Positions 1,582 to 64,000 of a stretch of DNA of 64,000 nucleotides are shown here, in pieces; within the stretch, counting starts at the first letter, position 1; every line of letters starts with the position of its first letter. The translations under genes and the position numbers were made by a program. Source of the DNA: Candidatus Nomurabacteria bacterium (lineage in GTDB: Bacteria; Patescibacteriota; Patescibacteriia; HK-STAS-PATE-3); the NCBI GenBank assembly GCA_023898465.1, contig CP060223.1, positions 736,001 to 800,000 on the forward strand, in the 5' to 3' direction. Below the pieces are notes generated by a model, which saw only the letters and a list, made by a program, of their open reading frames with translations, ran no database searches and was not told the DNA's origin.

Positions 1582-2211
1582 TCAGCAGCCACTGCCTGAA
1601 AAAGATATCGCATCCTTGCCTCCTAGGTTTCTGGTCCGATATGCACCGAACCAGACTACAACGTGACAGACCAGGCTGACGCCTGGATATACCAGAGCCG
1701 CGAAACCATCCGGCCAGGCAACAACACCTTGCAACGCATACGCCAGCACGCCCAAACTCCACGGCCACTGGCTCATGCGCTGAGTACGAGAGAAACTCAT
1801 CTTCGCTATAGGTACAAAGGAAGGGATCACCACCACCTGAGCGATGATGTTCTCTGCCTTTGGATTATGAGCAAGGGTTGCGTAACCCAGAGCTATCACA
1901 ACGCCAATTCCCATAGACATGTCCCACGCGTCGATCCTCGCAATCTGGCTGACTTGCTTCCACCCGAGCTTCACAATGTACGCAAGGGTGAAGAGCATGA
2001 TCAGGCTAATGCAGGCGACCTGCACATAGGTAAAGATGCGCGCGTAAAGTGACGTGAATTCCCGATAGGTAAGAAAATTCAACATCACCCACACAAACCA
2101 CATCCCGATGGTAACGGGATGCGGCACTTCGCCCTTGAAGATGGCTCGGAGATACGCGAAGTATGCTCCAGCCAAAGCCAAGGAAGCAAGAACCATACAT
2201 ACCGCTCCCAT
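1582..2211 (-). CDS. Hypothetical polytopic membrane protein
   Basis: 209-aa ORF with several hydrophobic helices. RBS GGAGGTATTC precedes the ATG. No recognisable family. Confidence 0.5.
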   Translation of the reverse strand: MGAVCMVLASLALAGAYFAYLRAIFKGEVPHPVTIGMWFVWVMLNFLTYREFTSLYARIFTYVQVACISLIMLFTLAYIVKLGWKQVSQIARIDAWDMSMGIGVVIALGYATLAHNPKAENIIAQVVVIPSFVPIAKMSFSRTQRMSQWPWSLGVLAYALQGVVAWPDGFAALVYPGVSLVCHVVVWFGAYRTRNLGGKDAISFSGSGC

Positions 2212-2313: not shown

Positions 2314-2399
2314 CGGTACGGCCTTGAACCTTTCAAAAAAGGCGGCCGCCATCACTGCGCTGCGTATGTTTGGTGATGCAACGCTTTGTGACAAAGCTG

Positions 2400-2497
2400 T
2401 GGCAGATGCAGGATTCGAACCCAACGACTCGCGAAAGAGTCATCTGGTGAATCGGTTGTTAACCGACGGGACCACTCCCTGGTCACCAGCACCTGCC
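2400..2497 (-). ncRNA. tRNA-like structured element (7-bp acceptor-like stem GGCAGGT/ATCTGCC, GGGTTCGAATCC T-loop-like motif, several internal hairpins); not a canonical tRNA
   Basis: Minus-strand sequence GGCAGGTGCTGGTGACCAGGGAGTGGTCCCGTCGGTTAACAACCGATTCACCAGATGACTCTTTCGCGAGTCGTTGGGTTCGAATCCTGCATCTGCCA (98 nt). It has the T-loop consensus and a terminal acceptor-like pairing. It cannot be folded into a standard cloverleaf by hand. Confidence 0.3.
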
Positions 2498-3767: not shown

Positions 3768-4217
3768 TCAGATGCACTCAGGGTGTGCACCGACATAACG
3801 CCCTTCCACTCCTATTGTAGAGACGTAATCTCCACAAATCTCCCCTCCACACATGACACAACCATGGGTAGCACATGGTTCCTTTTCTCGGGGTGTCCAG
3901 TCACAGGACCCCCCTCTTTCCTTGCCGCATGAGTAGCACGCGGCTACCCACTCGACAATTCCCTTGTGATCTTCAGGGGATTGGATGGGTACCTGGAATG
4001 ATATCCCCGTCAGATCCACACCACAGAATTTGCACTGTTTGTCATATACCGTCCCACGCCGAACTTCCAGTTCGGCTAGTCCGCGTTGATCCATCCCTGC
4101 CATTTCCCCTTTCCTTATGGTGGGGATATGATCGTTACAATATGCAACGTCATAAAGCAGGCCAGATGTGTAGTGAGTCGCGACCTGGTTACACGTATGA
4201 CAATGGATGGTCTTCAT
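3768..4217 (-). CDS. Hypothetical Cys-rich protein (multiple CxxC pairs)
   Basis: 149-aa ORF with about 16 Cys, including CHTC, CKFC, CYSC and CVMCGGEIC motifs. Confidence 0.45.
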   Translation of the reverse strand: MKTIHCHTCNQVATHYTSGLLYDVAYCNDHIPTIRKGEMAGMDQRGLAELEVRRGTVYDKQCKFCGVDLTGISFQVPIQSPEDHKGIVEWVAACYSCGKERGGSCDWTPREKEPCATHGCVMCGGEICGDYVSTIGVEGRYVGAHPECI

Positions 4218-5937: not shown

Positions 5938-7439
5938 GCCTGAGAAATTTTTAATGCTGCTCTTTGCCTCCTATCCAAATACCATACCCAGGCAAAAAGT
6001 CCGAAATAGAGAAGCAGCCACCAATATTGTCCTGTGGCAAAATGCAACAATGACCAATCCGGCAAAGCAAAAAATTCCACTACCATGATTACACCACGCA
6101 GTATGAGCCAGGTTGCCGCTCCAAATAGTATGCCAAGTGATAAAGAGAGCACGCTAAGTAAAAGCGCCGCCGTCCCGGCTGCCATGGCAAAAGGAATCAA
6201 GGGAAGGATGAGCACGTTCACAAATAAACTAACGAGAGACACTCGACCAAACACGCAGAGAATAAGTGGCAAGGTAAATAAGGAAGCGGCAATAGTGGCA
6301 GAGATGGTGCCCCGTATTTCAAAGCGCTCTGGCAAGAAATGCACCCAACGATCAACATGACCAGAAAGCAACATAAGTCCCAGGGTAGACCCAAAAGAGA
6401 GCTGAAAGCCCGCATCATCTAATAAGATGCGCGGGTTTACTAAAACCATACTTACCCCACTCAGCACGAGGGCATTTATCCCGCGACTCGGTCGACCTAC
6501 ATGTCCGGCAAAAGCGGCAATGCACCCCATAATACCTGCCCGCACAATCGACGCTTGGCCGCCCACAAAAATTACAAACAGCGAAATTGCTAAGAGGACA
6601 AACCAAAAGGCATGCCGGCGACCAATCGTTTTTATCGCCATCGACATGATGAGGTTTACAACAATGGTGATATTAAATCCTGACAGCGCAATGAGATGTG
6701 TCGTACCTGTCCGACCAAAGGCCTCTGTTAACCACTCAGGCAATCCGCGGCGCGCACCAACCAAGAGACCAGCCTCAAATGATGCTTCAGGCTCGGGTAG
6801 GATACGGGAGAGCTGCGCAGTCACCCACTCCCTCCCATCAATGAGCGCACCACTAAAACTCCAATGAGAGGATTGTACAAGATCGAAGTGGCGAGCACTG
6901 CAGGTTGTCGCAATTCCGGATAAGGCTAGATAACGATCATAGGCAAAATCCTCAATCGGCTCGGGATGACGCACAAAGCAGCTGAAGCTCACCTCATCAT
7001 TTAATCGAAAACGCGGATACAATAGCGCTCGCACTAAAATCTTTGCATCATTATTCTGTTCTGCACTTGTAATTTGATTATTAGAATTTGTTTTTTGTTT
7101 ATTGGTATTTGGAATTTGGGATTTGCTATTTGGGATTTCTATGGTGTACTTAATATGATCGCGGCGAATATCAGGCGCTGCTACAATCTGACCTTGCAGA
7201 CTAGTGTTCCCTTCAGGCAATTGAGCGAGCTCTGACACTACGGTTGCTCGCACTACACCAAGCGACAATCCAAAAAGACAAAGGAGCAACAGTGGTGCGC
7301 GCCGCCCTATAACGAAGATAATAAATACCCCGCAACAAAAAAGAAGCGGGTAAAGCAAAGGCAGAGAAATCCATCGGTAGAGACCTATACCGATGAGGAA
7401 AGAAATAAGTGTAGAGAGAAAAAGCTGGGAACGCGTCAT
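5934..7439 (-). CDS. comEC: ComEC/Rec2 competence membrane channel domain protein (N-terminal part of a split ComEC)
   Basis: 501-aa polytopic protein carrying a DUF4131-like N-terminus and a competence domain (…LIALSGFNITIV…). Contains an internal low-complexity N/Q/K-rich insert. Confidence 0.8.
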   Translation of the reverse strand: MTRSQLFLSTLISFLIGIGLYRWISLPLLYPLLFCCGVFIIFVIGRRAPLLLLCLFGLSLGVVRATVVSELAQLPEGNTSLQGQIVAAPDIRRDHIKYTIEIPNSKSQIPNTNKQKTNSNNQITSAEQNNDAKILVRALLYPRFRLNDEVSFSCFVRHPEPIEDFAYDRYLALSGIATTCSARHFDLVQSSHWSFSGALIDGREWVTAQLSRILPEPEASFEAGLLVGARRGLPEWLTEAFGRTGTTHLIALSGFNITIVVNLIMSMAIKTIGRRHAFWFVLLAISLFVIFVGGQASIVRAGIMGCIAAFAGHVGRPSRGINALVLSGVSMVLVNPRILLDDAGFQLSFGSTLGLMLLSGHVDRWVHFLPERFEIRGTISATIAASLFTLPLILCVFGRVSLVSLFVNVLILPLIPFAMAAGTAALLLSVLSLSLGILFGAATWLILRGVIMVVEFFALPDWSLLHFATGQYWWLLLYFGLFAWVWYLDRRQRAALKISQA

Positions 7440-7503
7440 ATCGCTGCGCCACCAACTTGTCCACTATGACTCTACGCTATGTGATGAAAAAAAGAAAGAC
7501 CTC

Positions 7504-7821
7504 TCAATGAGAGGTCTCCACGGCCTGAGAAGCAAGCACGTTCAAGCGCAAGTGACGCACCACCGCGCCGTAGGTAAAGCGCAGCCGAGTTCCCGAAGGA
7601 ACAAGAATCGAATCTCCTCGATTGATACGTGACCCATCGGCCACGAGGACGATCGGACCGGCCAGAGTCAGATTCCTCACTCGAATCTGATCACCCTCTA
7701 CCGAGAAGCTCACCTCCCTCGGAAGCTTCCCTCGGAGGATTTTGCCCTCCTCATCATCCTTACTCCTGAAGGAAACGATCTCGAGACCCTCGATTTCAGT
7801 AGCGCCCATGTAGCCCTCCAC
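7504..7821 (-). CDS. Hypothetical protein
   Basis: 105-aa ORF with no recognised motif. Visibly GC-richer than its neighbours. Confidence 0.35.
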   Translation of the reverse strand: MEGYMGATEIEGLEIVSFRSKDDEEGKILRGKLPREVSFSVEGDQIRVRNLTLAGPIVLVADGSRINRGDSILVPSGTRLRFTYGAVVRHLRLNVLASQAVETSH

Positions 7822-7936
7822 AGGTTGATAGAAAAGAGCAGCTACTCAGTATGTACCATGCGCAAAAGACTCCGTCAAATAAAGAAAGCCCCTCTACATC
7901 CTGCAAAGGGGCTGTACTTGCGGTGAGTGAACGAGG

Positions 7937-8179
7937 CTAGCGGACGACGCGGAAGAGAGTCTCGTCGACAGTGAAGTCCGTACCGTACGGTACCACCACG
8001 TGGCGCGTCGGCCAGACGGTCTCACGACCAACCCGGACGCCACCCACAGCGCTAGTGTTGTGCAACACCACCTGCTCATACCCACGGGAGCGGAGACTCA
8101 CCCCAATATCGTAATCGCCGACCTGGGGATCACGGGGGACCGGATGTGTCCTCATTCCATCAACACGCACAATCTGCAT
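7937..8179 (-). CDS. Hypothetical protein
   Basis: 80-aa ORF. GC-rich. No recognised motif. Confidence 0.35.
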   Translation of the reverse strand: MQIVRVDGMRTHPVPRDPQVGDYDIGVSLRSRGYEQVVLHNTSAVGGVRVGRETVWPTRHVVVPYGTDFTVDETLFRVVR

Positions 8180-8282
8180 GGTTTTTTCCTCCCAGCAGAA
8201 AAAAATTGGATGTCAAAAAACCGCAAGTAAGAAATACCATACGCCAAAAATACGGCTTTGTCAACGCCTAGCGCCGTGTTAA

Positions 8283-9366
8283 TTATATTACCGCACCCTC
8301 GCCTTTTAAATACGCTTCGATAAAGCCATCCAAATCACCATCGAGTACGGCTTGCGGATTATCTCCCTCGTGCTTAGTGCGATGATCTTTCACCATCTTA
8401 TAGGGATGCAACACATAAGAGCGAATTTGATTTCCCCATTCAGCTGAGTGAAATTCACCCCGAAGTTCTTTGCGCTTTTCCTCTTGTTCTTCCAGCCGCC
8501 TCATGTGCAATTTCTGCTTGAGAATCTTCATGGCTGTCTCTAGGTTCTGCTTTTGCGAACGCTCATTCTGACACTGCACAGTAATCTTGGTGGGTAAATG
8601 GACAATCCGTATAGCTGAATAGGTAGTGTTCACGCTCTGTCCACCATGACCTGAGGCCGTTGATGCCTCAATCTTCAAATCCTTTTCATCAATAACAATA
8701 TCAGGCAAGTCGCCAAAGTCCGGGATCACCTCAACAAGCGCAAATGAAGTATGACGCATCTTCTCGGCATCAAAAGGAGAAATGCGCACGAGGCGATGCA
8801 CACCTGCTTCGGCTTTGAGATAACCATAAGCATAGCGACCAAGCACTTCCATAGTAACACTCTTTATGCCCGCCTCACTACCTCGAGACTCATCAATCAC
8901 TTTCGCTGTCCAGCCCTTGCGTTCAAAATAACGCAGGTACATGCGCTTCAACATCTCAGCCCAATCCTGCGCATCAGTACCACCCGCTCCGGCATGAATA
9001 GCAAAGACGGCATCATTGGCATCGTACTCGCCACTAAGCATCATAGTAAATTCAAGCTGAGTAAAATCTTTCTCCAGCTTTTCGATTTGCGACTGCAGCT
9101 CTTCAGAGTCGCCAGTCTCTTGAGCTAGCTCATCTAGGGCTTGCGATTCTTCTTGCATTCGTTGCCAAAGCTCAACCTCTTTCTTAAGTTCGTCAAATTC
9201 ACGACTTGTCTTTGCCGCTGCCATATTGTCAGACCAGAAATCTGGCTGACTCATCTTATCTTCTAATTCCTTCAATAACTGCTGCTTTTGCGGCAGGTCA
9301 AAGAAACCCCCGTGAGGAGGCAATCTTTTGTGCGAGTTCGTGGATGCGTCCTTGAAGATCAGTCAT
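8283..9366 (-). CDS. prfB: Peptide chain release factor 2 with programmed +1 frameshift
   Basis: GGQ motif (ASGHGGQSVNT) and SPF motif (RISPFDAEK) identify RF2. The upstream short frame ATG(9366)…GGG TTT CTT TGA C ends at the classic CUU UGA C shift site with an SD-like GGGGG just before it. The +1 frame continues DLPQKQQLLKELE…, matching the listed ORF 8283..9323. Confidence 0.9.
9297..9303 (-). promoter_or_regulatory. RF2 autoregulatory +1 frameshift site CUU UGA C
   Basis: Seen in sequence. Preceded by AGGGGG (internal SD). Confidence 0.85.
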
Positions 9367-23255: not shown

Positions 23256-26200
23256 TTATGGTCTCTGATAATTAAAGCATGAGCAGCTGGAATTTCCTAG
23301 CGTATCAAAACTGCAAGGGTCGCCCAGTGGAGCTCCGGTCCACTTCCCTGGTCCGTCATACTCCATTTCAGCATACAGGGAGTAATTATTTGCCTCTTTA
23401 CACACGCCAGATCCGCCGCAGTCAGCATTAGATCGACAGGCAACACCACTTCCCTCGCATACTCGACTGGAGATGTAGGCGTAAATATTTGAACCGTTAG
23501 GGTCGCAGTAGAAGGTCTTGGTAGGCTCATTCCAGCAGGTTGTTTGCTCGTAGCCAGCCGGACAGGATCCAAATTGGTTGAGTGGATCAACACTCATACT
23601 ACGGCCAAGTGCATTACCCAAAGTGCTTTGCCAAGAAGGCCACTTAGAAGTACTCATGCCGAGGAGGAAGCTACCAGCTTCAAGGGATGGATAATGGCCA
23701 TTACTGGTGAAGTACTTTTCTAAACCAATGCTGGTATCCTGCAGATCTGCCAGGCGCTTGGTGTCTCGAATAATTTTTGCCTTATTCTCCGGGCCAATAC
23801 TTCCATTGGTATTCATTTTAATACGATTCAACATTTGCTGAAAAATATTGCGAGTGGCATCGTTTGCTCCATCGTTATAAGAAAGCACAAAAATGTGCGG
23901 TACCAATGAAGGAATCGCGTCAAATAAGTTGGTGCCAGCTAAGTAGACAGTCCGCCCATCTCGTAAGGCCTGATAACCATCTATAGTAGTCGATGATGGA
24001 GTGCTCGTAGCAAATGGGAACTGACGACGGTACCATTCTAGCGGTGACAAACCTTCGGAGTTTTGATATACCCGCACGCCAATGGCATCAATAGCATTCG
24101 AATCTGCTTCTTTAAACAAATACTGCTTCTGTACGTCTCCGGTCTGTCCTTTGATAACCTGCAAGTCAAAATTCGGCAACGTACTGTCATTATCACGACA
24201 ATACCCTAGGTGGAAATGATAGTCCTCACACCCTCCGCCCAGACTACAATTTCCCGCACTATCATCAAAATTCCATGCATCTGCACATCGGAAATAATCC
24301 ACTAAGGCCGAGCCGCGTTTCTCAGTGCCATCAGTGCTAACAGAGGCGGTGGCGGAAATAACGGCTTGGCCATTTTCTGCACCGGTCTTTGCTACATTCG
24401 TCGCACTTCCATCCGGCAGCTCCTGAGGATCAGTTAAGGTCGCTACCGTCGTAGTATCAATATCCCAGGACCAATCCCATTCATAGACGCCTGGAATCTC
24501 ATTTATCGGCCCTGAATCACTGCGTGGAGTAGCAGTAAAGAGCTGCTCCTGTCCCTCGGTATCAGCATTCCAAAGCGCTGGAGTGATATCCACGCCGGTT
24601 AATGCGCACACGCTGTCACTATCCACGCTAGTAAAGACCCAGGAGTAATTTGGCATGAGTACGCCGTCTGCACCTCGCAAGCCGTTCAATTCCGTACGAT
24701 ACGCAGTGTTCTTTAAGAGCAGACCAGGGTTCACCCGCAGCTGCGTGGCACTCTTTGCCGTAAAGGTAATGGGGACGCTATTGCCTACGCATCCGCCTGT
24801 TGTACAAACACCTGAAGCACACTCAGTACCCTCCGAACATGCCTCACCTTCACTAAGGCCTCCATCTACGGTCACAATCACCGTATCTGTGGTCATCGTG
24901 CTGACGTCCATAGCCTGGGCAAAATTGGCTTCGATGCTGGTATTGCGACACACGTCAGTATCGCCTGGATTTGGTCGGGTGCTGCTCACACTTGGTTGCG
25001 GCGCACAGCAGCCGGAATTTGCACAGCCATTCCCTACTGAACAATCACTATCAGCCACACAAACCTGACAACTTGGTGCGGTAATGGTGAAAGGGAAAGC
25101 ATTGCTGTCCCCGGCAGCCTTATGCACCACAGTATTCACTGTACCAGTAGGCAGGCCAAGCGGCACTAACACGTCGATTAACGCATCCACCCAGCCATTA
25201 AAGACACTCACATCAATACCTGAGAAACGGACGGCATCGCTTGCTTCTTGTGTGCCAAAATTTTGACCAATAATTTTTACCGGCTGTGCCTCTTGGCCGC
25301 TGTTTGGTTGCAAGGCACAAATGCCAGGTAGGATATTGCTGTTTACATCAAAGTCAGGAAGTATGGGCTCGCCCGTCGCGGCGTCATTAGTGCTATCACT
25401 TACCCCGTCTAAGCCACGCACAACGGTGATCGGACCATCAACTGCATCATCACCAGCTGGTGTGTTTCGATTTGGCACCTCGCTCGCCACAATCACGTTG
25501 TTCCGCCACAGCGCAGGAGGATTTGGACAAATATCACTATTAGCCCACAGGCCTTCTTTATCGCTTGAGTAGCGTACCTGACTATTGCCAACGCAAGTAC
25601 CACCCGGACAATCATTGTAGGTAGTGGTACAGCTAGCACCGTCATTATCACCACCAGAGCAGGTACCTGCCACATAGGATCCGAAATAACAACCATTGAT
25701 GGTTAACCAAGTGCCAATATCTCCACCGTTTGGGCTATAACCAGTGATAACTGGAGTACAGCGATGTTCTGCATTGTTACAGGTGCTTCCTCCACAGAGG
25801 CCGCCCTGCGTACAGTCAGTTGTTTCGTCACACCAGAGGAAATCAATGGTGAGATCGGAAGTATCATATTTACCGCTCCATGAACCCCGCACAGTAGCGT
25901 AGTCAGGAGCAGGTGGAAGTGTTGTTTCTTGTACGGCATGTACCGTAGCTACATCGTCACTAGTATCAGAGTCTGTGGCAAAGTCAGCGTCACCGCTTGG
26001 ACTAACTGTCCAGGTCCAAGGCGTCCCATCAGTATCAATCTGCTGGCCTCCAGCATCACATTGATCAGGGGAAGCATAGGCTTTGCCATAGAAATTTCGT
26101 TCACCATCCTCAACAGTGATGAGCTGGCTAGGAGGCGTCACGGTAACGTGGTCAACCGCGCAAGAGCTTGGGTCATCTTTTGTTCTGAAAGTCCACTGAT

Positions 26201-28850
26201 AAGCTGGAGAGCCAAGGTAGGTCGTATTGGTATTCCCGATTTCCTCTCCACTTGATCCTAATACTCCACCGGGGCCGCCAATTAAGAGTGCAGCATACCA
26301 CTGACTAATCTGCAGTGAACCAACTGGATCAAACTCCAGGCGATCGGTGGCTGCATCATAGGTAATCCCCTCCACGCCGACATTGCCAGTAAAGCTGGTA
26401 CAACTGGCATCTGAGCACTTACGCAAAAGTATAGTGCTGGTAGTCAAAGTGCTCGCATTAATATCGATGCTCGAAGGGCCAAAAGTATTGTGCAGCACCA
26501 CGTTCGGACAAACTGCCTGGCAAGTAGGCCAAGGGTCGGTAACAAAAATTTGATTCGGTGGATAATCCTGTACCGTAAACGGGACTGGGTTTGAATCATT
26601 ATCACTCGCGTCAGTCACATAGACTGGGTGGGTGTTACTCGCTGCACCGCTCGGCACTTGTGACATGGCTGACGTATCAGACCAGCTGGAAATCGTAGCG
26701 GGCTGTCCGTTGTAATAAGTTACCCCGCCGGTAGCTGAACCAAAGCGGACACCGCGTGCCTCAACAGTCTGACCTCGATATCCGCTGCTTGGACTCATCG
26801 AAGCAAGGCAAGGACCCTGAGCGGCCGTATCAGAGTTTACTGAAAAAGCGATATTCGTATTTGATTCCTGCGTACCATAGGCCCCGTCGTCGTAATCAAT
26901 GGTTACCTGTGTGTACACCGAATTACCATTGCTGTAATCCTCAGGAATCGTCGTGACAATGTAGTTTGGTGCAGCTGGGTCATTGAGGCGCGGCGAAGTA
27001 TTGGTCGGCGGCGGAAAAGCCGGGTCAGTATCAAAGTCAGGATCACGCGGCTGAGCACTATGCGTATCAGTGCCAGTGAAACAACTTCCATAAATAGTCA
27101 CGCATTGCCCAGGTGGACCGTTGTTTGGATTTATGGCTGCTACAAAAGGCACACAGGTACAATTTTCTGCATCAGTGACACTGAAATTCCAATTACCTGC
27201 CAGAGTATTTCCATCGCCATCGATTTCTCGATCAGTGGTGATGCGGACATTGAAGTCAGAATTCTGACTCAGGTCATTATTCGGATCAAATTGGTATACC
27301 TTGAAACCGGCATTTGGCGAGCCTGGATTTGGATCAATGATGCGGAAGACGCCGCCCAAGCCAGCCACTTCGTAATCTGGCCCTGGCATTGAGGAGGGAG
27401 CCGGCATGGTTGCACTCATATCTACACCCGGTGTGGCAGGATTATCAATCTCGATAGTTACTGAGTAATCCCACATCGATAGGGTGAAGACTGTAGTAAT
27501 ATTTGTGCTTGGGCAAACATTTCCGCCCTGTGGGTCATAGGCAGCAATACCAGCCGTCAAATCATTGGTTTGGAATTCCCACACTTCGGGCGGTTGTAAG
27601 CCGTTTCCACACAGATCTTCTACGTTTTGTACCGTGATGCGATACCAAGTGAAAGACTCCAACATGGCGCCGTCAGTGAATCGAATATCTACCCGATTAT
27701 CTCCACCTGAGCTAACAACAAGGGAGTCACTGGAGACTGTTCCAATCACTGCGCCACCCTCTCCATCAAGCTGCTGGAGATCAAAAATGCCTGGAATAGG
27801 ATGACTATCAACATCAGCCAAGGAGCTAATATCAATTGCCTCACTAAACCAAATCGAGAGTAAAGGATCGCGTGGTACGTTTCGATCTGGATATCCTGGC
27901 TCAGCACTGATCACCGGGTAAGCTGAACTAACGCTAGGCACCGTCTCATCAACTACATCATTGGTAGTGAAATTCCAGCGATAATGATCACCCGCATCAA
28001 CACAGCCACCGTCAGCGGTACAGTTCGTTAAGCTCAAACCGCCAGTGCTCTCTAAGGTTTTTGGAATGAATAACGTGTAATCAGCAAATGAGTCAAAAAG
28101 CTCATCTGGATGCTTAAAGGTGAGGCTCTTATCTGATGAAGTGAAGATACCAGACACCTCAGCTCCCCCACCGGCATGTTCAAGCTTCAATGGATTGGTC
28201 GCGTCATTCACTGCCGCCTCCACCGTTGCCGAATCAACATTTAAATTGAAACGCGGCATCACTCGACTGCAACGATTCACGTTTTGAGAATTGTCCGGCC
28301 CATCATGCGCAGTTAAAATTTCATTCACGGTAAATTGACTACTTGGCAGCATACAAAGGGGTGATGGGTCAGGTACATTACACTGCGTCCCAGACGCATC
28401 ACAAAGCAGACAAACTCCGCATGGTAAACCCGGATCACACGAATAGGTGTCGCCATTGGTGACATTACTTACCGTGTTGATGACAAAGGTAACAATGGCC
28501 CAGGAAATGAGAATAATAACGAGACCAACTGCCGCGCTGATGATAATCTGTTTTGCTTTATCAACCTTGTCGGCATTTCCACCAGCCGTCATCCAAATAT
28601 ACCCACCGTAGATAACAAAAACTACCGCTACCAGGGCCATAATACCGAGAGCCCAACGGATGATATTTATGATAACGTCTTTGAGATCAGCCGTACCCAG
28701 ACCGATTGAGCTGCCGATGTTTTCTATGGTAAAAGCTGTCGACTGTGCAGCCGCCGGTGCAGGATGAAAAGCTACACTAAGGGCGAGTAAGATACCCCCA
28801 GTAAAAATAACCCCTGTAATGATTCCGAGTAATAGTCGTTTCACAAGCAT
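23256..28850 (-). CDS. Giant (1864 aa) Cys-rich cell-surface protein; N-terminal two-TM hairpin resembling T4SS-pilin (VirB2/TrbC-like) fold, followed by Ig-like/beta-rich repeats and Cys-rich modules
   Basis: N-terminus has two hydrophobic helices separated by MTAGGNADKVDKAKQ. The body carries many repeated C-x-S/T-G-x-C modules and a single uninterrupted frame. Its size and composition are typical of CPR giant surface proteins. Confidence 0.65.
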   Translation of the reverse strand: MLVKRLLLGIITGVIFTGGILLALSVAFHPAPAAAQSTAFTIENIGSSIGLGTADLKDVIINIIRWALGIMALVAVVFVIYGGYIWMTAGGNADKVDKAKQIIISAAVGLVIILISWAIVTFVINTVSNVTNGDTYSCDPGLPCGVCLLCDASGTQCNVPDPSPLCMLPSSQFTVNEILTAHDGPDNSQNVNRCSRVMPRFNLNVDSATVEAAVNDATNPLKLEHAGGGAEVSGIFTSSDKSLTFKHPDELFDSFADYTLFIPKTLESTGGLSLTNCTADGGCVDAGDHYRWNFTTNDVVDETVPSVSSAYPVISAEPGYPDRNVPRDPLLSIWFSEAIDISSLADVDSHPIPGIFDLQQLDGEGGAVIGTVSSDSLVVSSGGDNRVDIRFTDGAMLESFTWYRITVQNVEDLCGNGLQPPEVWEFQTNDLTAGIAAYDPQGGNVCPSTNITTVFTLSMWDYSVTIEIDNPATPGVDMSATMPAPSSMPGPDYEVAGLGGVFRIIDPNPGSPNAGFKVYQFDPNNDLSQNSDFNVRITTDREIDGDGNTLAGNWNFSVTDAENCTCVPFVAAINPNNGPPGQCVTIYGSCFTGTDTHSAQPRDPDFDTDPAFPPPTNTSPRLNDPAAPNYIVTTIPEDYSNGNSVYTQVTIDYDDGAYGTQESNTNIAFSVNSDTAAQGPCLASMSPSSGYRGQTVEARGVRFGSATGGVTYYNGQPATISSWSDTSAMSQVPSGAASNTHPVYVTDASDNDSNPVPFTVQDYPPNQIFVTDPWPTCQAVCPNVVLHNTFGPSSIDINASTLTTSTILLRKCSDASCTSFTGNVGVEGITYDAATDRLEFDPVGSLQISQWYAALLIGGPGGVLGSSGEEIGNTNTTYLGSPAYQWTFRTKDDPSSCAVDHVTVTPPSQLITVEDGERNFYGKAYASPDQCDAGGQQIDTDGTPWTWTVSPSGDADFATDSDTSDDVATVHAVQETTLPPAPDYATVRGSWSGKYDTSDLTIDFLWCDETTDCTQGGLCGGSTCNNAEHRCTPVITGYSPNGGDIGTWLTINGCYFGSYVAGTCSGGDNDGASCTTTYNDCPGGTCVGNSQVRYSSDKEGLWANSDICPNPPALWRNNVIVASEVPNRNTPAGDDAVDGPITVVRGLDGVSDSTNDAATGEPILPDFDVNSNILPGICALQPNSGQEAQPVKIIGQNFGTQEASDAVRFSGIDVSVFNGWVDALIDVLVPLGLPTGTVNTVVHKAAGDSNAFPFTITAPSCQVCVADSDCSVGNGCANSGCCAPQPSVSSTRPNPGDTDVCRNTSIEANFAQAMDVSTMTTDTVIVTVDGGLSEGEACSEGTECASGVCTTGGCVGNSVPITFTAKSATQLRVNPGLLLKNTAYRTELNGLRGADGVLMPNYSWVFTSVDSDSVCALTGVDITPALWNADTEGQEQLFTATPRSDSGPINEIPGVYEWDWSWDIDTTTVATLTDPQELPDGSATNVAKTGAENGQAVISATASVSTDGTEKRGSALVDYFRCADAWNFDDSAGNCSLGGGCEDYHFHLGYCRDNDSTLPNFDLQVIKGQTGDVQKQYLFKEADSNAIDAIGVRVYQNSEGLSPLEWYRRQFPFATSTPSSTTIDGYQALRDGRTVYLAGTNLFDAIPSLVPHIFVLSYNDGANDATRNIFQQMLNRIKMNTNGSIGPENKAKIIRDTKRLADLQDTSIGLEKYFTSNGHYPSLEAGSFLLGMSTSKWPSWQSTLGNALGRSMSVDPLNQFGSCPAGYEQTTCWNEPTKTFYCDPNGSNIYAYISSRVCEGSGVACRSNADCGGSGVCKEANNYSLYAEMEYDGPGKWTGAPLGDPCSFDTLGNSSCSCFNYQRP

Positions 28851-32503: not shown

Positions 32504-33175
32504 ATGGAAGCATTTGCCGCGTTTGACGCCTTTCTCCTTATTCTATGGATTCTCCTCCTGAGCCAAGGCCGGCTTAGGTCGATGCTCTTACTATCCAGCC
32601 TATTGAGCATTCCGCTTGTGGTACTCGCCACGCTTTTGCAGCCTGACTACTATGATCCACCTGCTTTTACCTCGGCGCCAATTGATATCGAGCGGTTGAT
32701 ATTTCTCTTCTTAGCTGGAGGAATTGCTGCCACGATATACCCAGCCATGAGTCGACAGTATTTTCTACCGATTAGCAATGGCCGAAATATGTGGCCGGAA
32801 CGAGTTTTTGTCCCACTGGGAATTATCACGATAATTCTTTTGCCGCCCGTCCTCTTCCACTGGAGCGCTATGCACGCATTAGTACTCGGTGAAGTTGTAG
32901 GCGTCTTGCTGGTTATCTGGATTGGCCGTGACCTGCGGAATATCATGCTTGGCTCTGCATTATTAAGCGGCCTAGGCTATTTCTTGCTGCTAAAGCTCTG
33001 GTCGCTCCTCTTCCCTGATGTCCTGGAGCTTTGGAACCCCGAAGCGTTTTGGGGCATTCACGTATTGAACGTACCTCTCGGAGAGCTCGTACTGGCGCTA
33101 CTCTTTGGCGCACTCTGGGGACCCCTGGTCGCGTTAATCTTTCACCGACACCTCACCCGTCAAACGCAACCGTAA
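32504..33175 (+). CDS. Hypothetical polytopic membrane protein
   Basis: 223 aa with 6–7 hydrophobic helices. No recognised motif. Confidence 0.45.
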   Translation: MEAFAAFDAFLLILWILLLSQGRLRSMLLLSSLLSIPLVVLATLLQPDYYDPPAFTSAPIDIERLIFLFLAGGIAATIYPAMSRQYFLPISNGRNMWPERVFVPLGIITIILLPPVLFHWSAMHALVLGEVVGVLLVIWIGRDLRNIMLGSALLSGLGYFLLLKLWSLLFPDVLELWNPEAFWGIHVLNVPLGELVLALLFGALWGPLVALIFHRHLTRQTQP

Positions 33176-40956: not shown

Positions 40957-41028
40957 AGGCGGGTCAAGGATTTGAACCTCGGAATCGCGGATTTGAAGAC
41001 CGCTGCCTTACCACTTGGCTAACCCGCC
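40957..41028 (-). tRNA. tRNA with UCA anticodon, tRNA-Cys-like body (candidate UGA-reading tRNA)
   Basis: GGCGGGT/ACCCGCC acceptor with discriminator U73. Anticodon arm GCGGT-CTTCAAA-TCCGC gives U33, anticodon 34-36 = UCA, A37. Short variable loop, 72 nt. The acceptor, discriminator and anticodon stem closely resemble bacterial tRNA-Cys (GCA), with G34 changed to U. Confidence 0.55.
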
Positions 41029-41050
41029 TTTCAACCTATAAGTTAGAGAG

Positions 41051-41124
41051 GCGCCCTGGAAGGAATTGAACCTCCGACATCTGGGTCCATAGCCCAGCGC
41101 TCTTCCGACTGAGCTACAGGGCAC
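41051..41124 (-). tRNA. tRNA-His-like (extra 5' G-1 opposite C73); anticodon reads AUG by manual fold, atypical
   Basis: G-1 + TGCCCTG acceptor with C73. D-arm GCTC-AGTCGGAA-GAGC. Anticodon arm CTGGG-CTATGGA-CCCAG. Body resembles tRNA-His, but position 34 is A rather than G. Confidence 0.45.
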
Positions 41125-41470: not shown

Positions 41471-42118
41471 TCAATTCAGCGAGAAACGGAAGGGAATGAC
41501 TGTCCAGACGGCCACCGCCCTATCACGCTGCTTCGCCGGACTAAAGAGCCACTGGAGTGCCGCAGCACATGCTGACTGATTCATCGACTCGAGCACCTCA
41601 CTCTGCACCACACTCGCTGCATCAACCGCACCGGTCTCGGTAATATGCACGCGCACCATCACCAAACCTTCCGCACCAGCCTGACGAGCCAAGTCAGGAT
41701 AGACCGGAGCTACCCGATGAATGACCTGTGGCGCTGTATCATAGGCCACAAAAGTCTCGGGTATTCCACTGTCCTGTCCGCTCATCACAATTGGCGGAGC
41801 AAAGGGATCGTAGGTCGTAGGAGCCAGCGTTTCTTCCAGACTGGCCATCTCGCTGATCTCAGCCTCAGCCGGCAAGTCAGGTCGCTGCACTTCTTGCGGC
41901 GGAGGTGGAACCACGAAGTCCTCCATGAACTCCACCGCGGTCATCACGCGCTCATGCAACTGATAAGGATGCGGGACATAGGGCGGCGAAAACCTGGCGA
42001 GCAAGAACAAGAGGGCAGTTGCTACCAGAAAACTCCAGCCTATGTCACGCCAGTAGTGCTGCTTCAGTAGGTAATGCTCTGAGGCACGGAAGCTTTCCAA
42101 TCCGATCACAAAGCACAC
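41471..42118 (-). CDS. TonB C-terminal-domain protein (N-terminal TM anchor, Pro-rich spacer)
   Basis: TM helix, then PPPPQEVQRPDLPAE spacer, then C-terminal …PVYPDLARQAGAEGLVMVRVHITETGAV…, a TonB_C-like motif. Confidence 0.55.
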   Translation of the reverse strand: MCFVIGLESFRASEHYLLKQHYWRDIGWSFLVATALLFLLARFSPPYVPHPYQLHERVMTAVEFMEDFVVPPPPQEVQRPDLPAEAEISEMASLEETLAPTTYDPFAPPIVMSGQDSGIPETFVAYDTAPQVIHRVAPVYPDLARQAGAEGLVMVRVHITETGAVDAASVVQSEVLESMNQSACAAALQWLFSPAKQRDRAVAVWTVIPFRFSLN

Positions 42119-59260: not shown

Positions 59261-59740
59261 TTAACTTTCCCCAATTTCGCTTTTTCCTAACCAAGCGTCA
59301 ATCGTCCACTTCCATGATTTACGCCATACAAGGAAAATAGACAATACAATCAAACCTAAATCCTTTAAGAGCGCTTCAGTCGGTGTCGCTCCGATCGAGA
59401 AAGTACCAAAGCAACCACAATCGATGTCTGTGTTCCCTCGAGCAATATTAATACTAATGGCAATGATAAAGCTCAAGAGCATAAGCGTGAGCGCTCCAGC
59501 CGCCCATCGACGCCAAAATCCAGCCAACACAAAGAGACCGCCCAATAACTCAATCCACGGCGTCACCAATGCGAATATACTTACCATACCCTCGGGAAGT
59601 AATTCGTAGGTGCGAATCGCTGCCTCAAATTCCTCCACTGGCGCCATGAGCTTCCCAAGCGCGGCGTAAACAAAGATTCCACCGACCAGCAAGCGAGCAA
59701 GCCATTCTAAGGCAATCAGCCAGCGCTTAGTTGTTGGCAT
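59261..59740 (-). CDS. DoxX/MauE-family membrane protein with CGCFG motif (putative thiol-oxidoreductase partner)
   Basis: Four TM helices and a …IDCGCFGTF… motif characteristic of MauE/DoxX-like proteins. Start taken at the internal Met to avoid overlap with the downstream DsbA. Confidence 0.6.
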   Translation of the reverse strand: MPTTKRWLIALEWLARLLVGGIFVYAALGKLMAPVEEFEAAIRTYELLPEGMVSIFALVTPWIELLGGLFVLAGFWRRWAAGALTLMLLSFIIAISINIARGNTDIDCGCFGTFSIGATPTEALLKDLGLIVLSIFLVWRKSWKWTIDAWLGKSEIGES

Positions 59741-60527
59741 TGACCTCGGATTGGTCAGTCGATGCAGTAGCGTCCGCTTCGGCAATTGCGGCATCGATCA
59801 CGGACTTCCAATTATCAGTGGTCATACCACCGACACGTCGCTCTCCATTGATGAAGAAGGTAGGAGTAGAATTTACCTTACGAGCATTACCTTCCCCAAT
59901 ATCAGTATTTACCGCTTCTTTTTGCTCGGTATTATCTATACAGCTTTGAAAAGCTTCGGAATCAATCCCAAGGTCAGAAGCGTACTGCACAAAAGTGTCA
60001 GTAACGGTGGAGCCGCTTAATACTGACCAGCTCGCTTGCTCCTCAAAAAGTTTATCGTGATACTCCCAGAACTTACCTTGCGCGAATGCACATTGTGCCG
60101 CCTCTGCAGCTGCTCGTGCATTTTTGTGAATGGTAGTTAAGGGATAATCATTGTACACAAAGCGCACATCATTTGGATATGCCGCCAACACTTCAGGGAG
60201 ATTTGTATCTGCTGCCTTACAGGCTGGACACTGGAAATCTGAGTACTCTTCAATTAAGACCTTTGCGGTTTCAGGACCTCGGCTTGGGTCGTTATCGTTT
60301 GAGAAATCACCTGCTGTACTTGTATTGTCACTACCCTGGAAAGCCCAAATACCTCCTCCAACAACCACTACAAGAATGATGACAGTCCAAATAAGCTTTT
60401 TCATACGGGCTGACTGGGCACCTTTTTCTCGGTTTGCCATTTTTTCTTGGCGTCGTAATTCTCGTCGCTGTTTTTTGGTTAGCTGCTGTTCTGTATTATC
60501 GTTCATAGCTTTGTAGAAAAGTATCAA
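59727..60527 (-). CDS. DsbA-like thioredoxin-fold thiol:disulfide oxidoreductase, membrane-anchored (paralog 1)
   Basis: TM anchor. CxxC active site FQCPACK. C-terminal cis-Pro region …TPTFFING…. Confidence 0.7.
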   Translation of the reverse strand: MILFYKAMNDNTEQQLTKKQRRELRRQEKMANREKGAQSARMKKLIWTVIILVVVVGGGIWAFQGSDNTSTAGDFSNDNDPSRGPETAKVLIEEYSDFQCPACKAADTNLPEVLAAYPNDVRFVYNDYPLTTIHKNARAAAEAAQCAFAQGKFWEYHDKLFEEQASWSVLSGSTVTDTFVQYASDLGIDSEAFQSCIDNTEQKEAVNTDIGEGNARKVNSTPTFFINGERRVGGMTTDNWKSVIDAAIAEADATASTDQSEVNANN

Positions 60528-61170
60528 GTAGTCCTAAATCCCAGGTTAAAGTTTGCTCGCTTTGTCCGGGGATGGCAATAGTCAATTGTAAGGTTTTTGG
60601 ATTCACTTTATCGATATCCAATCCTTCTTCACTTGTCCGGGCAAAGGCTACTAAGCCAATACGTTGATTGACTTCAGAGGCTGGCAAGAGCACTGAGTTA
60701 GCCTCTGACCACTGCTGCACGGGATATACATTACCCTCATCATCACTTAAGCTAACAATTTCCTCAGGATCAAATTCAGAAAGTTCATCATCTGAACTAG
60801 CTAAGGTGAGGTAGAAGACGATTGTATCAGTATTTGGCTTCAGGATGGCTAAACGATCAGCAACTTCACCCTGATGCCCTGATTTGGTGGGAAGCGCCTC
60901 TAATGCACTAGCCAGCTCTGGGAAAAAATAGCTCGCTTCTACCAATATCTTTGCATTCGTATCACCACTCCGCCAGCCAGCATCAAAGTAATCAGTAAAG
61001 ACGCCTTCGGGGGAAGTATCGCTTGAGGTATTACTAAGGAGTGTAGTGTCGCTAATAGAACTCGATCCATGCGGCCAACTTAGCCACACTCCGAAGATAA
61101 TTACCACAATACCAAAAGCCCAGAACCACACGGGCAAACTGGGCTTTGGTGTAACTTTCTTACGTGGCAT
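60496..61170 (-). CDS. Hypothetical exported protein with N-terminal TM anchor (DUF4352-like beta-sandwich, tentative)
   Basis: 224 aa with a signal-anchor and S/T-rich linker. Confidence 0.45.
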   Translation of the reverse strand: MPRKKVTPKPSLPVWFWAFGIVVIIFGVWLSWPHGSSSISDTTLLSNTSSDTSPEGVFTDYFDAGWRSGDTNAKILVEASYFFPELASALEALPTKSGHQGEVADRLAILKPNTDTIVFYLTLASSDDELSEFDPEEIVSLSDDEGNVYPVQQWSEANSVLLPASEVNQRIGLVAFARTSEEGLDIDKVNPKTLQLTIAIPGQSEQTLTWDLGLLDTFLQSYER

Positions 61171-61184
61171 GCTGCCGAATCGTT

Positions 61185-61967
61185 CTAGAGTAACTGGTCA
61201 ATAACTGATTTGAAGCTGGCGTACGGAAGTGCGCCGCTAATCAATTGACCAGTAGTGACATCGTCACCCTGTAAGACAAAGGTGGCCGGAGTACCAGACA
61301 CACCAGCGAGTTCTCCTTCACTCATATCAGCCTGTACATCATCATCATACTTCTTGCTCTGGTAGCAATCATTAAACTTATCAACGTTTAGTCCGAGATC
61401 GCTCGCTACCTGACTGTAATAGGAGTCGCTCATTGAAGACTGCGTTGCGAATATCTTATCGCCAAACTCCCAAAACTTATCTTGCTCAGCAGCACATTCA
61501 GAAGCATTTGCCGCTGGTAGCGCTTGAGGGTGAATCGAAGTGAGTGGGAAATGTCGATACACTAGAGAAACAGTGTCAGGATTCTCATCAATAATTCGCT
61601 GCAAGGTTGGGTGAAGGTTGCTGCAGTATGGGCACTGGAAATCAGAGAACTCTACCAGTACTACTTTTGCTTTAGAAGGGTCAGCGCCAAGGTAATGATC
61701 ATCCTTGGTTGGCTTGCTAATAGCCGATGCGTTGCCGGTCGGGGCTGCAGCTGCAGAGGTGTTTGTATTTGCTGCGGCCACTGTATCGGTTCCCTTTACT
61801 GTTGCAGTTGAAGCGCCACCGCCAAACATAATAAAGCCCAGCGCAGTAAGTGCTACGCCAACAAAAAGACCCAACATAAATGTGGTCTTGGGAGGTGCAT
61901 CGAGGATGCCGGCTGGACGTGAGCCTTCACCCGATGGCACGTTACGAACTACTGGAGATGGTGTCAT
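61185..61967 (-). CDS. DsbA-like thiol:disulfide oxidoreductase, membrane-anchored (paralog 2)
   Basis: FQCPYCSNLHP CxxC motif. …TPATFVLQG…. Confidence 0.7.
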   Translation of the reverse strand: MTPSPVVRNVPSGEGSRPAGILDAPPKTTFMLGLFVGVALTALGFIMFGGGASTATVKGTDTVAAANTNTSAAAAPTGNASAISKPTKDDHYLGADPSKAKVVLVEFSDFQCPYCSNLHPTLQRIIDENPDTVSLVYRHFPLTSIHPQALPAANASECAAEQDKFWEFGDKIFATQSSMSDSYYSQVASDLGLNVDKFNDCYQSKKYDDDVQADMSEGELAGVSGTPATFVLQGDDVTTGQLISGALPYASFKSVIDQLL

Positions 61968-62043
61968 GTGCTCGAGAATTTAAGAAAAAAATGAAATGCC
62001 TAAGTGATGGATAGTATACGAATTTTGAGCCCGTATTGTCAAT

Positions 62044-62772
62044 TTACTCTAACAACCCTTCTATCAACTGCTGAAAAGTGGCAAAAGGTAGGGCCCCTTC
62101 AATTTTTCTTCCGTTTACAAAAAACGTAGGCGTGCCACGAACCCCTAAATCCAAGCCGTCGGAAAAATCGTCCAAAATTTCATTCTCATATTTGCCACTA
62201 GTTATACAACTCGTAAACTCATCTTCTTTCACTCCGGCTAATCTAGCCCAAGCCAGGATATTTTCCTGCGTCATTTCGTCTTGTCCAATAAACATACGAT
62301 CATGGAGCGACCAATATTGATTTGAGCCTTGTTCCCAAGCACACTGCCCTGCTTCAGCCGCAAATAACGCGAGTGGATGAGCCTCAGTAACTGGGTAATC
62401 ACGAAAGACAAAACGAATTTGCCCACTGTAGGTATTCATAAGCTGACGTACGGTTGGAAACACCTCCTTACAATAGGGGCATTGGTAATCTCCAAACTCA
62501 ACAATAGTTACTGCAGCATCAGCAGGACCGAGTGATGGATCATTTTCACCGACCAGTTGAGCATCGAGATTGCTATTTGTGTTTACTCCCTGATTTTGCT
62601 GGGTATTAAACGTAAAACTACTGGTATCGCTAGTGATAACCTTTTGCAAGGAATGAATAGTAAGCCCGACGTATCCGCCACTCAAAATAATGAAAAGCGC
62701 GCCAAGACCAAGTACCCATGGTTTCATATACCAAGGGCGACTTTTTTGTACATACGATGGCACGTCTTGCAT
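62044..62772 (-). CDS. DsbA-like thiol:disulfide oxidoreductase, membrane-anchored (paralog 3)
   Basis: YQCPYCKEVFP CxxC motif. …TPTFFVNG…. Confidence 0.7.
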   Translation of the reverse strand: MQDVPSYVQKSRPWYMKPWVLGLGALFIILSGGYVGLTIHSLQKVITSDTSSFTFNTQQNQGVNTNSNLDAQLVGENDPSLGPADAAVTIVEFGDYQCPYCKEVFPTVRQLMNTYSGQIRFVFRDYPVTEAHPLALFAAEAGQCAWEQGSNQYWSLHDRMFIGQDEMTQENILAWARLAGVKEDEFTSCITSGKYENEILDDFSDGLDLGVRGTPTFFVNGRKIEGALPFATFQQLIEGLLE

Positions 62773-62870: not shown

Positions 62871-64000
62871 CTACACAATAAGCAGTATCGAGATCGTGTA
62901 CATCAAGAGCAGAGAGTAGACAACAGTTGGATGATGCTGCACTCGGAATCGAATAAATACCATCAATGCGAGCGCAATGGTTAAGAAAATGAGGAAGGCA
63001 ACAAAGAAGCGCTGCGAGTATAAGACGATTTGAATAAGCGTGTCAGGAGTGATCAGACGGCTTGGCTCCAAAACCATTCGACCGAAGAATTCCGTAGTGA
63101 TAAGTGGAGCCTCGGTAATATTTTGCGCTGCGTCCTGCGCAATAACTGAAATAGCGCTATCAGCTTGAGCACTACCTCGTGTATCAATTTGACCGTAATA
63201 TCCGTCAACGCTCGGTTGGAGATTCGCTTCGATTCCTCCATAGCGAACTACTACATGCTCTGGGTCATTGGTGACTGTTGCAAAGACATCATAACCAGTC
63301 CGCGGTTCCCAGGATGGTAAGACGACAGATCGATCAAGGGCAATAAGTGGAGACTGGGTATCAATGGAAATAGTTACCGGCTCGGTGCTGCCACTCTCAA
63401 GTTGTGAGTCCGGATCAACCGCATAGGCAATTAAACTATGTGAACCGTCAAGCAAGGGCTCAGTCACATCACCTTCGTATTTACCCTCGGCATCAGCCTT
63501 TACCTCAAGTACCACTGTTTCACCATCTTGCACCTTTACGACAGCATTAGGACTGGTCACTCCGGCCACTCTCGGCTGCGCCACATTTAACAAGCTTTCC
63601 GGTTTTGGAAAAGCAATAGTCGGAGTAATTGGTGGCTCGGCCTTTACTACTGGCTGAGGTGTCGGCGTGCTAGGTGTAGTAGGAGTGCTGGGTTGTTGTA
63701 TGCTTGGTGTGCTTGAGGATTGCGAAGTTGCAGGTGCGGGCTCCGGTGCTGCGGCTACTTCTACCTGCAAAGGCGCGCCAAACATCTGTGCAACCACAAT
63801 AGTCTGTACACCATTTACTTCACCAGTGGAAACCGCAATACCAATCTCAGTGTAATTTGCATTCATGATATTTTTACGGTGCGAAGGACTTGCTAACCAG
63901 GCATCAACCAGCGTTTCGGCCGTTGAAAAATCCTTAGCTAAATTCTCACCAGCAAATTTATATGAATACCCTGCTCGCTTAAACCAGTCCCACGGGGTCA
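62871..64000 (-). CDS. CAP/SCP (PR-1-like) domain protein with P/T-rich linker, Ig-like region and C-terminal TM anchor; N-terminus runs off the window end
   Basis: The frame continues upstream of the listed Met as …SPSHRKNIMNANYTEIGIAVS…, the conserved CAP C-terminal motif (HR.NIL……Y.EIG). Partial gene. Confidence 0.55.
   Translation of the reverse strand, partial: TPWDWFKRAGYSYKFAGENLAKDFSTAETLVDAWLASPSHRKNIMNANYTEIGIAVSTGEVNGVQTIVVAQMFGAPLQVEVAAAPEPAPATSQSSSTPSIQQPSTPTTPSTPTPQPVVKAEPPITPTIAFPKPESLLNVAQPRVAGVTSPNAVVKVQDGETVVLEVKADAEGKYEGDVTEPLLDGSHSLIAYAVDPDSQLESGSTEPVTISIDTQSPLIALDRSVVLPSWEPRTGYDVFATVTNDPEHVVVRYGGIEANLQPSVDGYYGQIDTRGSAQADSAISVIAQDAAQNITEAPLITTEFFGRMVLEPSRLITPDTLIQIVLYSQRFFVAFLIFLTIALALMVFIRFRVQHHPTVVYSLLLMYTISILLIV

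Follow-up and report, generated by a model that had tools for sequence, protein, structure and literature searches.

In this study, we analysed a 64,000-nucleotide stretch of DNA from a Candidatus Nomurabacteria bacterium (GenBank assembly GCA_023898465.1, contig CP060223.1, positions 736,001 to 800,000 of the forward strand; this whole stretch is called the window below). We propose that five close-packed open reading frames (ORFs) on its minus strand, read from 62772 to 59261 and encoding DsbA3, DsbA2, a 224-amino-acid protein, DsbA1 and the membrane protein MauE, are an oxidative protein-folding operon of a monoderm-like Candidate Phyla Radiation (CPR) bacterium, in which MauE re-oxidises the DsbA proteins. 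We put the probability of this reading at roughly 0.7. It is built on the gene content, the motifs, the predicted fold and topology and the conserved synteny, all of which were obtained here. The basic mechanism has already been described in 2026 for other phyla; new here are the CPR setting, the arrangement of DsbAs from three clades with a conserved CPAC partner of MauE, and a DsbA-associated family to which the 224-amino-acid protein belongs. The recently proposed MauE pathway of oxidative folding would thereby be extended to the CPR.

Organization of the operon

The five genes are as follows, in the order in which they are read (positions are those of the window).

62044-62772, minus strand: DsbA3, ORF of 242 amino acids, active site CPYC; start at 62727 (227 amino acids) according to the gene call on Logan contig L007
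61185-61967, minus strand: DsbA2, 260 amino acids, active site CPYC
60496-61170, minus strand: cysteine-free protein of 224 amino acids with an N-terminal transmembrane (TM) anchor
59727-60527, minus strand: DsbA1, ORF of 266 amino acids, active site CPAC; revised start at 60506 (259 amino acids)
59261-59794, minus strand: MauE/DoxX protein, ORF of 177 amino acids with four TM segments and the motif DIDCGCFG; revised start at 59740 (159 amino acids, from M19)

The starts at 59740, 60506 and 62727 for MauE, DsbA1 and DsbA3 were chosen on the basis of homologue lengths (145-170 amino acids for MauE) and of the gene calls on contig L007, which showed full identity with the window in the 5 kb compared and on which the five proteins measure 227, 260, 224, 259 and 159 amino acids. 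Since public gene calls start downstream, an exact-sequence look-up with the longest-ORF forms of MauE and DsbA3 returned no match; for the 224-amino-acid protein, a 100% identical entry, H6760_03970, exists at NCBI. With the revised starts, the DsbA1 stop and the MauE start overlap by 14 nt, the 224-amino-acid gene and DsbA1 overlap by 11 nt, DsbA2 lies 14 nt from the 224-amino-acid gene, and the gap between DsbA3 and DsbA2 is 76 nt long. The initial annotation had listed three DsbA-like proteins (CPAC, CPYC and CPYC), each with its own TM anchor, and a membrane protein beside them; coordinates, Pfam matches and motifs agree with this and all four proteins are real, but the inventory had overlooked the fifth gene at 60496-61170. 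One further element lies inside the DsbA3-DsbA2 gap.

62013-62042, minus strand: sigma-70-like promoter match, TTGACA-18-TATACT, 11/12 in a consensus scan

This could possibly be an internal promoter for DsbA2, the 224-amino-acid gene, DsbA1 and MauE; in total, the region has no more promoter matches than are expected from shuffled sequence, and the 11/12 match is suggestive only.

The MauE protein

The initial annotation had described a four-helix membrane protein with a Cys-Gly-Cys (CGC) motif. This is borne out by a match to the Pfam family MauE (PF07291) of 95.7 bits (cutoff 27; E 3.3e-27; profile positions 4-127 of 128), by four hydropathy peaks, corresponding to four hydrophobic segments, and by the motif DIDCGCFG; the same ORF matches Pfam DoxX more weakly (39.5 bits, E 8.7e-10). 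The protein has exactly two cysteines, C108 and C110, both within DIDCGCFG (residues 105-112 of the 159-amino-acid form). In an AlphaFold2 model (pLDDT 86.9), helices span residues 4-32, 50-73, 77-100 and 120-139; the loop formed by residues 101-119, between TM3 and TM4, contains the CGC motif, and Lys30 lies in TM1 and Glu64 in TM2. Lysine and arginine together number eight on the N-terminus, loop 2 and the C-terminus as against two on loops 1 and 3 and, by the positive-inside rule, a computational inference, the CGC loop is therefore predicted to be extracytoplasmic.

In an alignment of 46 homologues, whose candidates were collected through shared five-residue words, a procedure that can favour the motif, no variation is seen at C108, C110, F111 or E64, and at least 90% of the sequences share K30, G109 and G112; the conservation of CGC among MauE orthologues, on which the initial annotation had wanted to see its proposal checked, is thus found. 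It has been reported that MauE proteins from Caldithrix abyssi (H1XRV2) and Desulfatibacillum aliphaticivorans (B8FLW7) restore motility and PhoA in an Escherichia coli ΔdsbB strain, that the tested proteins can spare neither cysteine of the CGC in the TM3-TM4 loop, CXC mutants being dead, that the CGC is trailed by a conserved Phe-Gly, and that a lysine in TM1 and a glutamate in TM2 line the predicted quinone site (bioRxiv 10.64898/2026.03.05.709764). The same study found MauE to be much more widespread than mauA. Compared with H1XRV2 and B8FLW7 by these reported features rather than by direct alignment, the window MauE bears, as judged from its sequence, every feature reported for the MauE proteins that replace DsbB; MauE loci from the phyla of the experimentally tested proteins are approximately 32-42% identical to it.

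The three DsbA paralogues

All three DsbA proteins match the Pfam families Thioredoxin_4 and DSBA (DsbA1, 1.3e-29 and 2.2e-18; DsbA2, 1.4e-23 and 1.7e-19; DsbA3, 5.9e-32 and 7.7e-21), and DsbA1 and DsbA2 align with the DSBA model over nearly its full length. Each has four cysteines, two in the CXXC and two in the helical domain. A cis-Pro loop lies near the C-terminus (STPTFF in DsbA1, GTPATF in DsbA2 and GTPTFF in DsbA3). Each begins with a basic tail, a single TM segment and a linker of low complexity and has no lipobox cysteine, and all three are predicted to lie outside the cytoplasm. The closest solved relatives are Gram-positive-type DsbA (4pwo/4pwp and 7unn), Bacillus subtilis BdbD and Mt-DsbA; for DsbA1 these are 7unn/4pwo and BdbD 3eu3, and for DsbA3 the best PDB matches are DsbA 4pwp (1.6e-16) and BdbD. 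Like the window DsbAs, Mt-DsbA has a Thr-cis-Pro loop and a second cysteine pair in the helical domain (PMC3853704), and the Thr-Pro cis-Pro loop is shared by Sa-DsbA.

The initial annotation had left it open whether the three DsbAs arose by recent duplication or are ancient paralogues. Among themselves they share 29-35% identity, and with their positional orthologues 53-61% (61% for DsbA2 and its counterpart in L001, a contig of the closest sequenced relative), and a neighbour-joining tree resolves three clades, a MauE-adjacent DsbA1 clade in which all members are CPAC, a DsbA3 clade and a DsbA2 clade; they are therefore ancient paralogues. DsbA1 groups with the MauE-adjacent CPAC DsbAs of L001, L003 and L005, and DsbA3 with DsbAs that precede members of the 224-amino-acid family in other CPR genomes (42-45% identity).

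The active site of the DsbA2 orthologue in the closest sequenced relative (L001 7708-8499) is CTFC and not CPYC; the missing usual proline hints at a shifted redox role for the DsbA2 paralogue. Two other assignments were considered and dropped. The thioredoxin-like (seleno)lipoprotein family of Rcas_1661 (NF041057) gave 97-104 bits against a cutoff of 190, and no lipobox is present; a selenoprotein link was rejected, as the NCBIfam matches are sub-threshold and the active-site codons, like all cysteine codons, are TGT or TGC.

Conservation of gene order

The same five genes in the same order are found in a relative (L001/L002), whose MauE is 59% identical to that of the window and which shares the ParA/ParB/TPR/RelA/TopA synteny. 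In one Kerfeldbacteria metagenome-assembled genome (MAG) and another CPR genome, an overlapping DsbA(CPAC)-MauE pair stands behind a fructose-bisphosphate aldolase gene, and the 14-nt overlap of the pair is kept across CPR lineages of only 40-59% identity. More widely, we looked at 80 MauE loci from GTDB species genomes of many phyla; these were retrieved by the DIDCGCFG motif itself and therefore cannot serve to measure motif conservation. Of these loci, 24 adjoin a DsbA-like gene, as detected with a narrow DsbA profile that leaves other thioredoxin-fold neighbours uncounted. Most of the 24 belong to Nocardioides and other Actinomycetota, where the DsbA gene lies downstream, i.e. in reverse order, and the active sites are CP[IFYAVL]C.

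In the Kerfeldbacteria MAG and the other CPR genome, further DsbAs adjoin genes for a BlaI-like repressor and an M56/M48 peptidase. At L003 11518-13544, L005 16670-19532, L088 238-2931 and L090 3040-5672, a DsbA gene comes immediately after those for the BlaI-like repressor (Penicillinase_R) and the M56/M48 membrane peptidase, and some of the BlaI/M56-linked DsbAs in related CPR genomes are followed by a member of the 224-amino-acid family. Such an arrangement suggests a disulfide module under the control of envelope signals, as far as can be predicted from gene order; the regulator pair is absent from the window operon.

The 224-amino-acid protein

The cysteine-free protein encoded between DsbA2 and DsbA1 consists of its N-terminal TM anchor, a helical segment and a C-terminal Ig-like beta-sandwich, and it has no match in Pfam even at E<=10. 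A word-indexed search returned three homologues, and an exhaustive profile search of 1.84 billion representatives gave 31 matches with E<=0.001, including 10 with E<=1e-10. The majority of these matches are approximately 170-230 amino acids long; five are longer (382-1825 amino acids) and, as two of those scanned bear TPR or CoA-transferase domains, are unlikely to be members of the family. Residues R67, A79, L90, Q100, Y149, L194, L196 and W210 are invariant, and inspection of the family residues revealed no cysteine and no obvious metal site. Two distant members (E ~1e-19), from two other CPR genomes, each lie directly behind a DsbA gene with a 14-nt overlap, in operons of the order BlaI-M56/M48-DsbA-X, where X is the family member, and one of these operons comes right after a SUF operon, as in the window. 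We regard the family as a very small, conserved and, going by its genomic context, predicted DsbA companion in CPR, and its recurrence behind DsbA genes is worth flagging in its own right; our guess would be that the protein holds substrates or acts as a scaffold. Because the DsbAs linked to this family elsewhere group with DsbA3, the window operon has the appearance of two conserved CPR modules joined together, namely [DsbA3-type + X] and [DsbA1(CPAC) + MauE]. DsbA2 sits between DsbA3 and the 224-amino-acid gene.

Proposed mechanism and alternative explanations

According to our proposal, cysteine-containing secreted proteins, for which a giant surface protein with 60 cysteines (described below) and pilins are candidates, would leave Sec and be oxidised on the outer face of the membrane by the three anchored DsbA/MdbA-like oxidoreductases. 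Reduced DsbA, most clearly the translationally coupled DsbA1 (CPAC), would then be re-oxidised by the CGC in the TM3-TM4 loop of MauE, and the electrons would pass from MauE to a membrane-soluble acceptor between the helices near Lys30, Glu64 and Phe111, which by analogy may be a quinone. MauE, although it has homology to neither DsbB nor VKOR, would in this way fill their role. From the data given above we infer the activity of the window MauE, its DsbA partner or partners, the substrates and the electron acceptor. It had been suggested in the initial annotation that the CGCFG protein is a candidate for the membrane re-oxidant; this idea gains support from the experiments on other MauE homologues, and further from the full set of family features and from the DsbA-coupled gene pair that is conserved across CPR lineages.

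Several points weigh against this proposal. The study on which it leans (Gonzalez…Ruddock) is a preprint of March 2026 that is not peer reviewed, and among the work cited in it is a study by Alvarez et al. suggesting that MauE is a reductase (10.64898/2026.03.05.709764). The invariance of the motif among the 46 homologues may be inflated by the word-based retrieval. Parcubacteria have been reported to be without quinone biosynthesis (PMC4508563), so that it is not obvious that the usual electron sink is available to them. Lastly, VKOR is common among CPR bacteria and often adjoins MdbA-like genes (PMC6744442), so MauE may have a redundant or a specialised role.

The last point leads to the alternative that survives best, namely that a canonical VKOR or DsbB/BdbC encoded elsewhere is the general DsbA oxidant and that MauE is dedicated to, or redundant for, DsbA1 or one class of substrates. 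MauE has no homology to DsbB (PF02600) or VKOR (PF07884), which have two cysteine pairs including a CXXC. The initial annotation had seen no DsbB or VKOR in the window, and indeed none of the multi-TM ORFs scanned in the 64 kb matches PF02600 or PF07884, nor did any besides MauE, among those examined for it, show paired redox-type cysteines. Individual candidates were dismissed as follows: the ORF at 1-577 resembles prepilin peptidase in sequence; the ORF at 1582-2211 (minus strand; 209 amino acids, four TM segments, four cysteines) has no CXXC, no paired loop cysteines and no Pfam match; and the remaining multi-TM ORFs are cysteine-free or, by sequence and synteny, ComEC-like, those scanned matching only DUF6580, Lycopene_cyc or TPR models. 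The premise that such an enzyme is missing thus holds within the 64-kb window of the 1.08-Mb genome only; the CPR are enriched in an MdbA-like oxidoreductase family, and VKOR is found in at least 750 of the CPR genomes that also have this family, among whose neighbours it ranks third by frequency (Meheust et al. 2019, PMC6744442), so that a VKOR elsewhere in the genome is quite possible, as is redundancy. In many species, more than one of DsbB, VKOR and MauE is present (10.64898/2026.03.05.709764), only DsbA1 consistently adjoins MauE, the other DsbA clades occurring in BlaI/M56 operons in relatives, and a dedicated role would have a parallel in MauE/MauD of methylotrophs, which serve only methylamine dehydrogenase. 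However, no VKOR or DsbB was found in the approximately 20-kb MauE-centred loci of three related genomes either, all three DsbAs are gathered with MauE in this lineage, and no substrate of the mauA/mauB type is encoded nearby. On balance, we consider a general oxidant other than MauE to be unlikely. The specific case of dedicated methylamine dehydrogenase maturation was rejected, as no mau genes are found nearby or among the window proteins scanned.

It is considerably less probable that MauE works reductively, in an isomerase or reductase pathway comparable to DsbD/CcdA, or in a complex like that of mycobacterial DoxX. This idea could draw on the reductase role proposed earlier and cited in 10.64898/2026.03.05.709764, on the DoxX match and on the possibility that the three DsbA paralogues include an isomerase. 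However, the only two cysteines of MauE are both in one predicted extracytoplasmic loop, which leaves no trans-membrane thiol relay and no site for a cytoplasmic partner; MauE homologues complement the loss of the oxidase DsbB; the partner proteins show the DsbA architecture with a helical insert and not that of TlpA/DsbE or dimeric DsbC; and no gene for a rhodanese (SseA) or SodA is adjacent. That the DsbA and MauE genes are neighbours without a functional link, MauE having an unrelated membrane role, would accord with the 56 of 80 loci in which the narrow profile detected no adjacent DsbA gene, but is hardly credible given the 14-nt overlaps conserved at 40-59% identity, the independent origin of the pairing in Actinomycetota and the 8.2% of InterPro MauE entries that are fused to a thioredoxin-fold domain (10.64898/2026.03.05.709764).

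Returning to re-oxidation of the DsbAs by MauE, a bolder version would be that quinone-less, respiration-less CPR bacteria run a full MauE-based disulfide relay whose sink is a quinone taken up from the membrane of the host or a non-quinone acceptor, with the 224-amino-acid family as a CPR-specific DsbA accessory factor that had gone unrecognised and BlaI/M56 control in relatives. We offer this version tentatively, and at low odds.

Comparison with known systems

The window MauE resembles the DsbB-like MauE proteins H1XRV2 and B8FLW7 in Pfam family, approximate size, four TM segments, two cysteines, the CGC-F-G loop and the Lys/Glu pair, as well as in having a thioredoxin-fold partner and no linkage to mauA/mauB. 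Unlike them, it comes from a CPR bacterium of the Nomurabacteria/Parcubacteria type and is known here from its sequence alone, it shares its operon with three anchored DsbAs and with a novel, presumably accessory protein, and its host lineage has been reported to be without quinone synthesis. Our literature searches found no paper tying MauE or DoxX to CPR, and CPR are not mentioned in the text of the MauE preprint (10.64898/2026.03.05.709764).

A further parallel is the VKOR-MdbA/DsbA pathway of Actinomyces oris, Corynebacterium and Mycobacterium tuberculosis (Rv2968c/Rv2969c), which has also been noted in CPR (Meheust et al. 2019, PMC6744442). It shares with the proposed system an anchored DsbA-like oxidase with a Thr-cis-Pro and an extra disulfide in the helical domain, re-oxidation by a small polytopic membrane protein encoded alongside, and, as clients in a cell that has no outer membrane, pilins and surface proteins. 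Surface proteins and pili are central to the episymbiotic lifestyle of CPR bacteria, in which MdbA-like oxidoreductases are enriched, and the compact operon described here provides a test set for asking which DsbA is recognised by MauE and where the electrons go in an organism whose lineage is reported to be without quinone synthesis.

In the E. coli DsbB-DsbA and B. subtilis BdbC-BdbD systems, DsbA likewise oxidises the substrates and a four-helix protein regenerates DsbA and passes electrons to the membrane; however, MauE shows no homology to DsbB and contains a single cysteine pair in place of two, and the window DsbAs are TM-anchored rather than soluble proteins or lipoproteins. In the mau cluster, MauE and a CXXC thioredoxin-fold partner, MauD, are needed for an exported protein with multiple disulfides, whereas no mauA, mauB or mauG gene lies near the window MauE and its partners are of the DsbA type (Thioredoxin_4/DSBA) rather than the MauD/TlpA type, and number three rather than one. 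DoxX of M. tuberculosis acts in a DoxX-SseA-SodA membrane oxidoreductase complex. The window MauE differs from this protein and from DoxD/TQO in that it scores far higher for MauE than for DoxX, has the CGC motif and has no rhodanese or SodA neighbours.

Candidate substrates

The initial annotation had reasoned that several DsbAs would fit the high cysteine content of a giant surface protein and of small cysteine-rich proteins. Two window proteins bear on this.

23256-28850, minus strand: candidate substrate, exported surface protein of 1864 amino acids with an N-terminal T4SS_pilin-like (VirB2-like) domain followed by TIG and Big_5 (Pfam)
3768-4217, minus strand: protein of 149 amino acids with 13 cysteines (8.7%) and no signal peptide, TM segment or Pfam match

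The first part of this reasoning stands, as the giant protein has 60 cysteines, an even number, often closely spaced, and it is a candidate DsbA substrate. The 13-cysteine protein, in contrast, looks cytoplasmic and is probably a metal-binding protein rather than a disulfide substrate; as it has neither signal peptide nor TM segment, the argument from small cysteine-rich proteins is weak. Other exported or anchored window proteins mostly have zero or two cysteines. The gene for the giant is followed by one for a TSP3-repeat protein, and FtsA/FtsZ are encoded in the neighbourhood.

Neighbouring genes and other features of the window

Upstream of the DsbA cluster lie a gene for a cysteine-free CAP/Big_13 surface protein and then the SUF operon. 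The CAP (SCP/PR-1) and Big_13 protein has 488 amino acids, C-terminal TM segments and zero cysteines, and is complete in L007 at 6834-8300.

62871-64000, minus strand: C-terminal 331-amino-acid part of the 488-amino-acid CAP/Big_13 protein; the ORF runs past the window end

Downstream of MauE are two tRNA-Met genes, two ORFs without a Pfam match, a tRNA-Leu gene and then ParA/ParB. Five features elsewhere in the window are listed here.

40957-41028, minus strand: tRNA of 72 nt with anticodon UCA, normal cloverleaf, loop CU-UCA-AA, 63.7 bits with the Rfam tRNA model
41050-41123, minus strand: tRNA-His with anticodon AUG (loop CUAUGGA), ARAGORN
2399-2497, minus strand: tRNA-Val with anticodon AAC, 99 nt, ARAGORN
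32504-33175, plus strand: cysteine-free protein of 223 amino acids with seven TM segments, Lycopene_cyc 3.4e-08
41471-42118, minus strand: anchored protein of 215 amino acids, TonB_C 2.5e-17

The anticodon of the UCA tRNA, which matches the Rfam tRNA model and not the tRNA-Sec model, would read UGA; TGA is the stop codon in 13 of the 48 confident window genes. In its acceptor and anticodon stems and in its discriminator, U73, it looks tRNA-Cys-like, and it could be a suppressor or a tRNA of the Sec-to-Cys recoding type. Anticodons with A34, such as AUG and AAC, are unusual in bacteria, and the tRNA-His and tRNA-Val may be CPR oddities or mis-calls. The Lycopene_cyc match is unexpected for a CPR genome, in which isoprenoid and lipid metabolism is minimal, and the TonB_C protein is surprising in that CPR cells are thought to be without an outer membrane.

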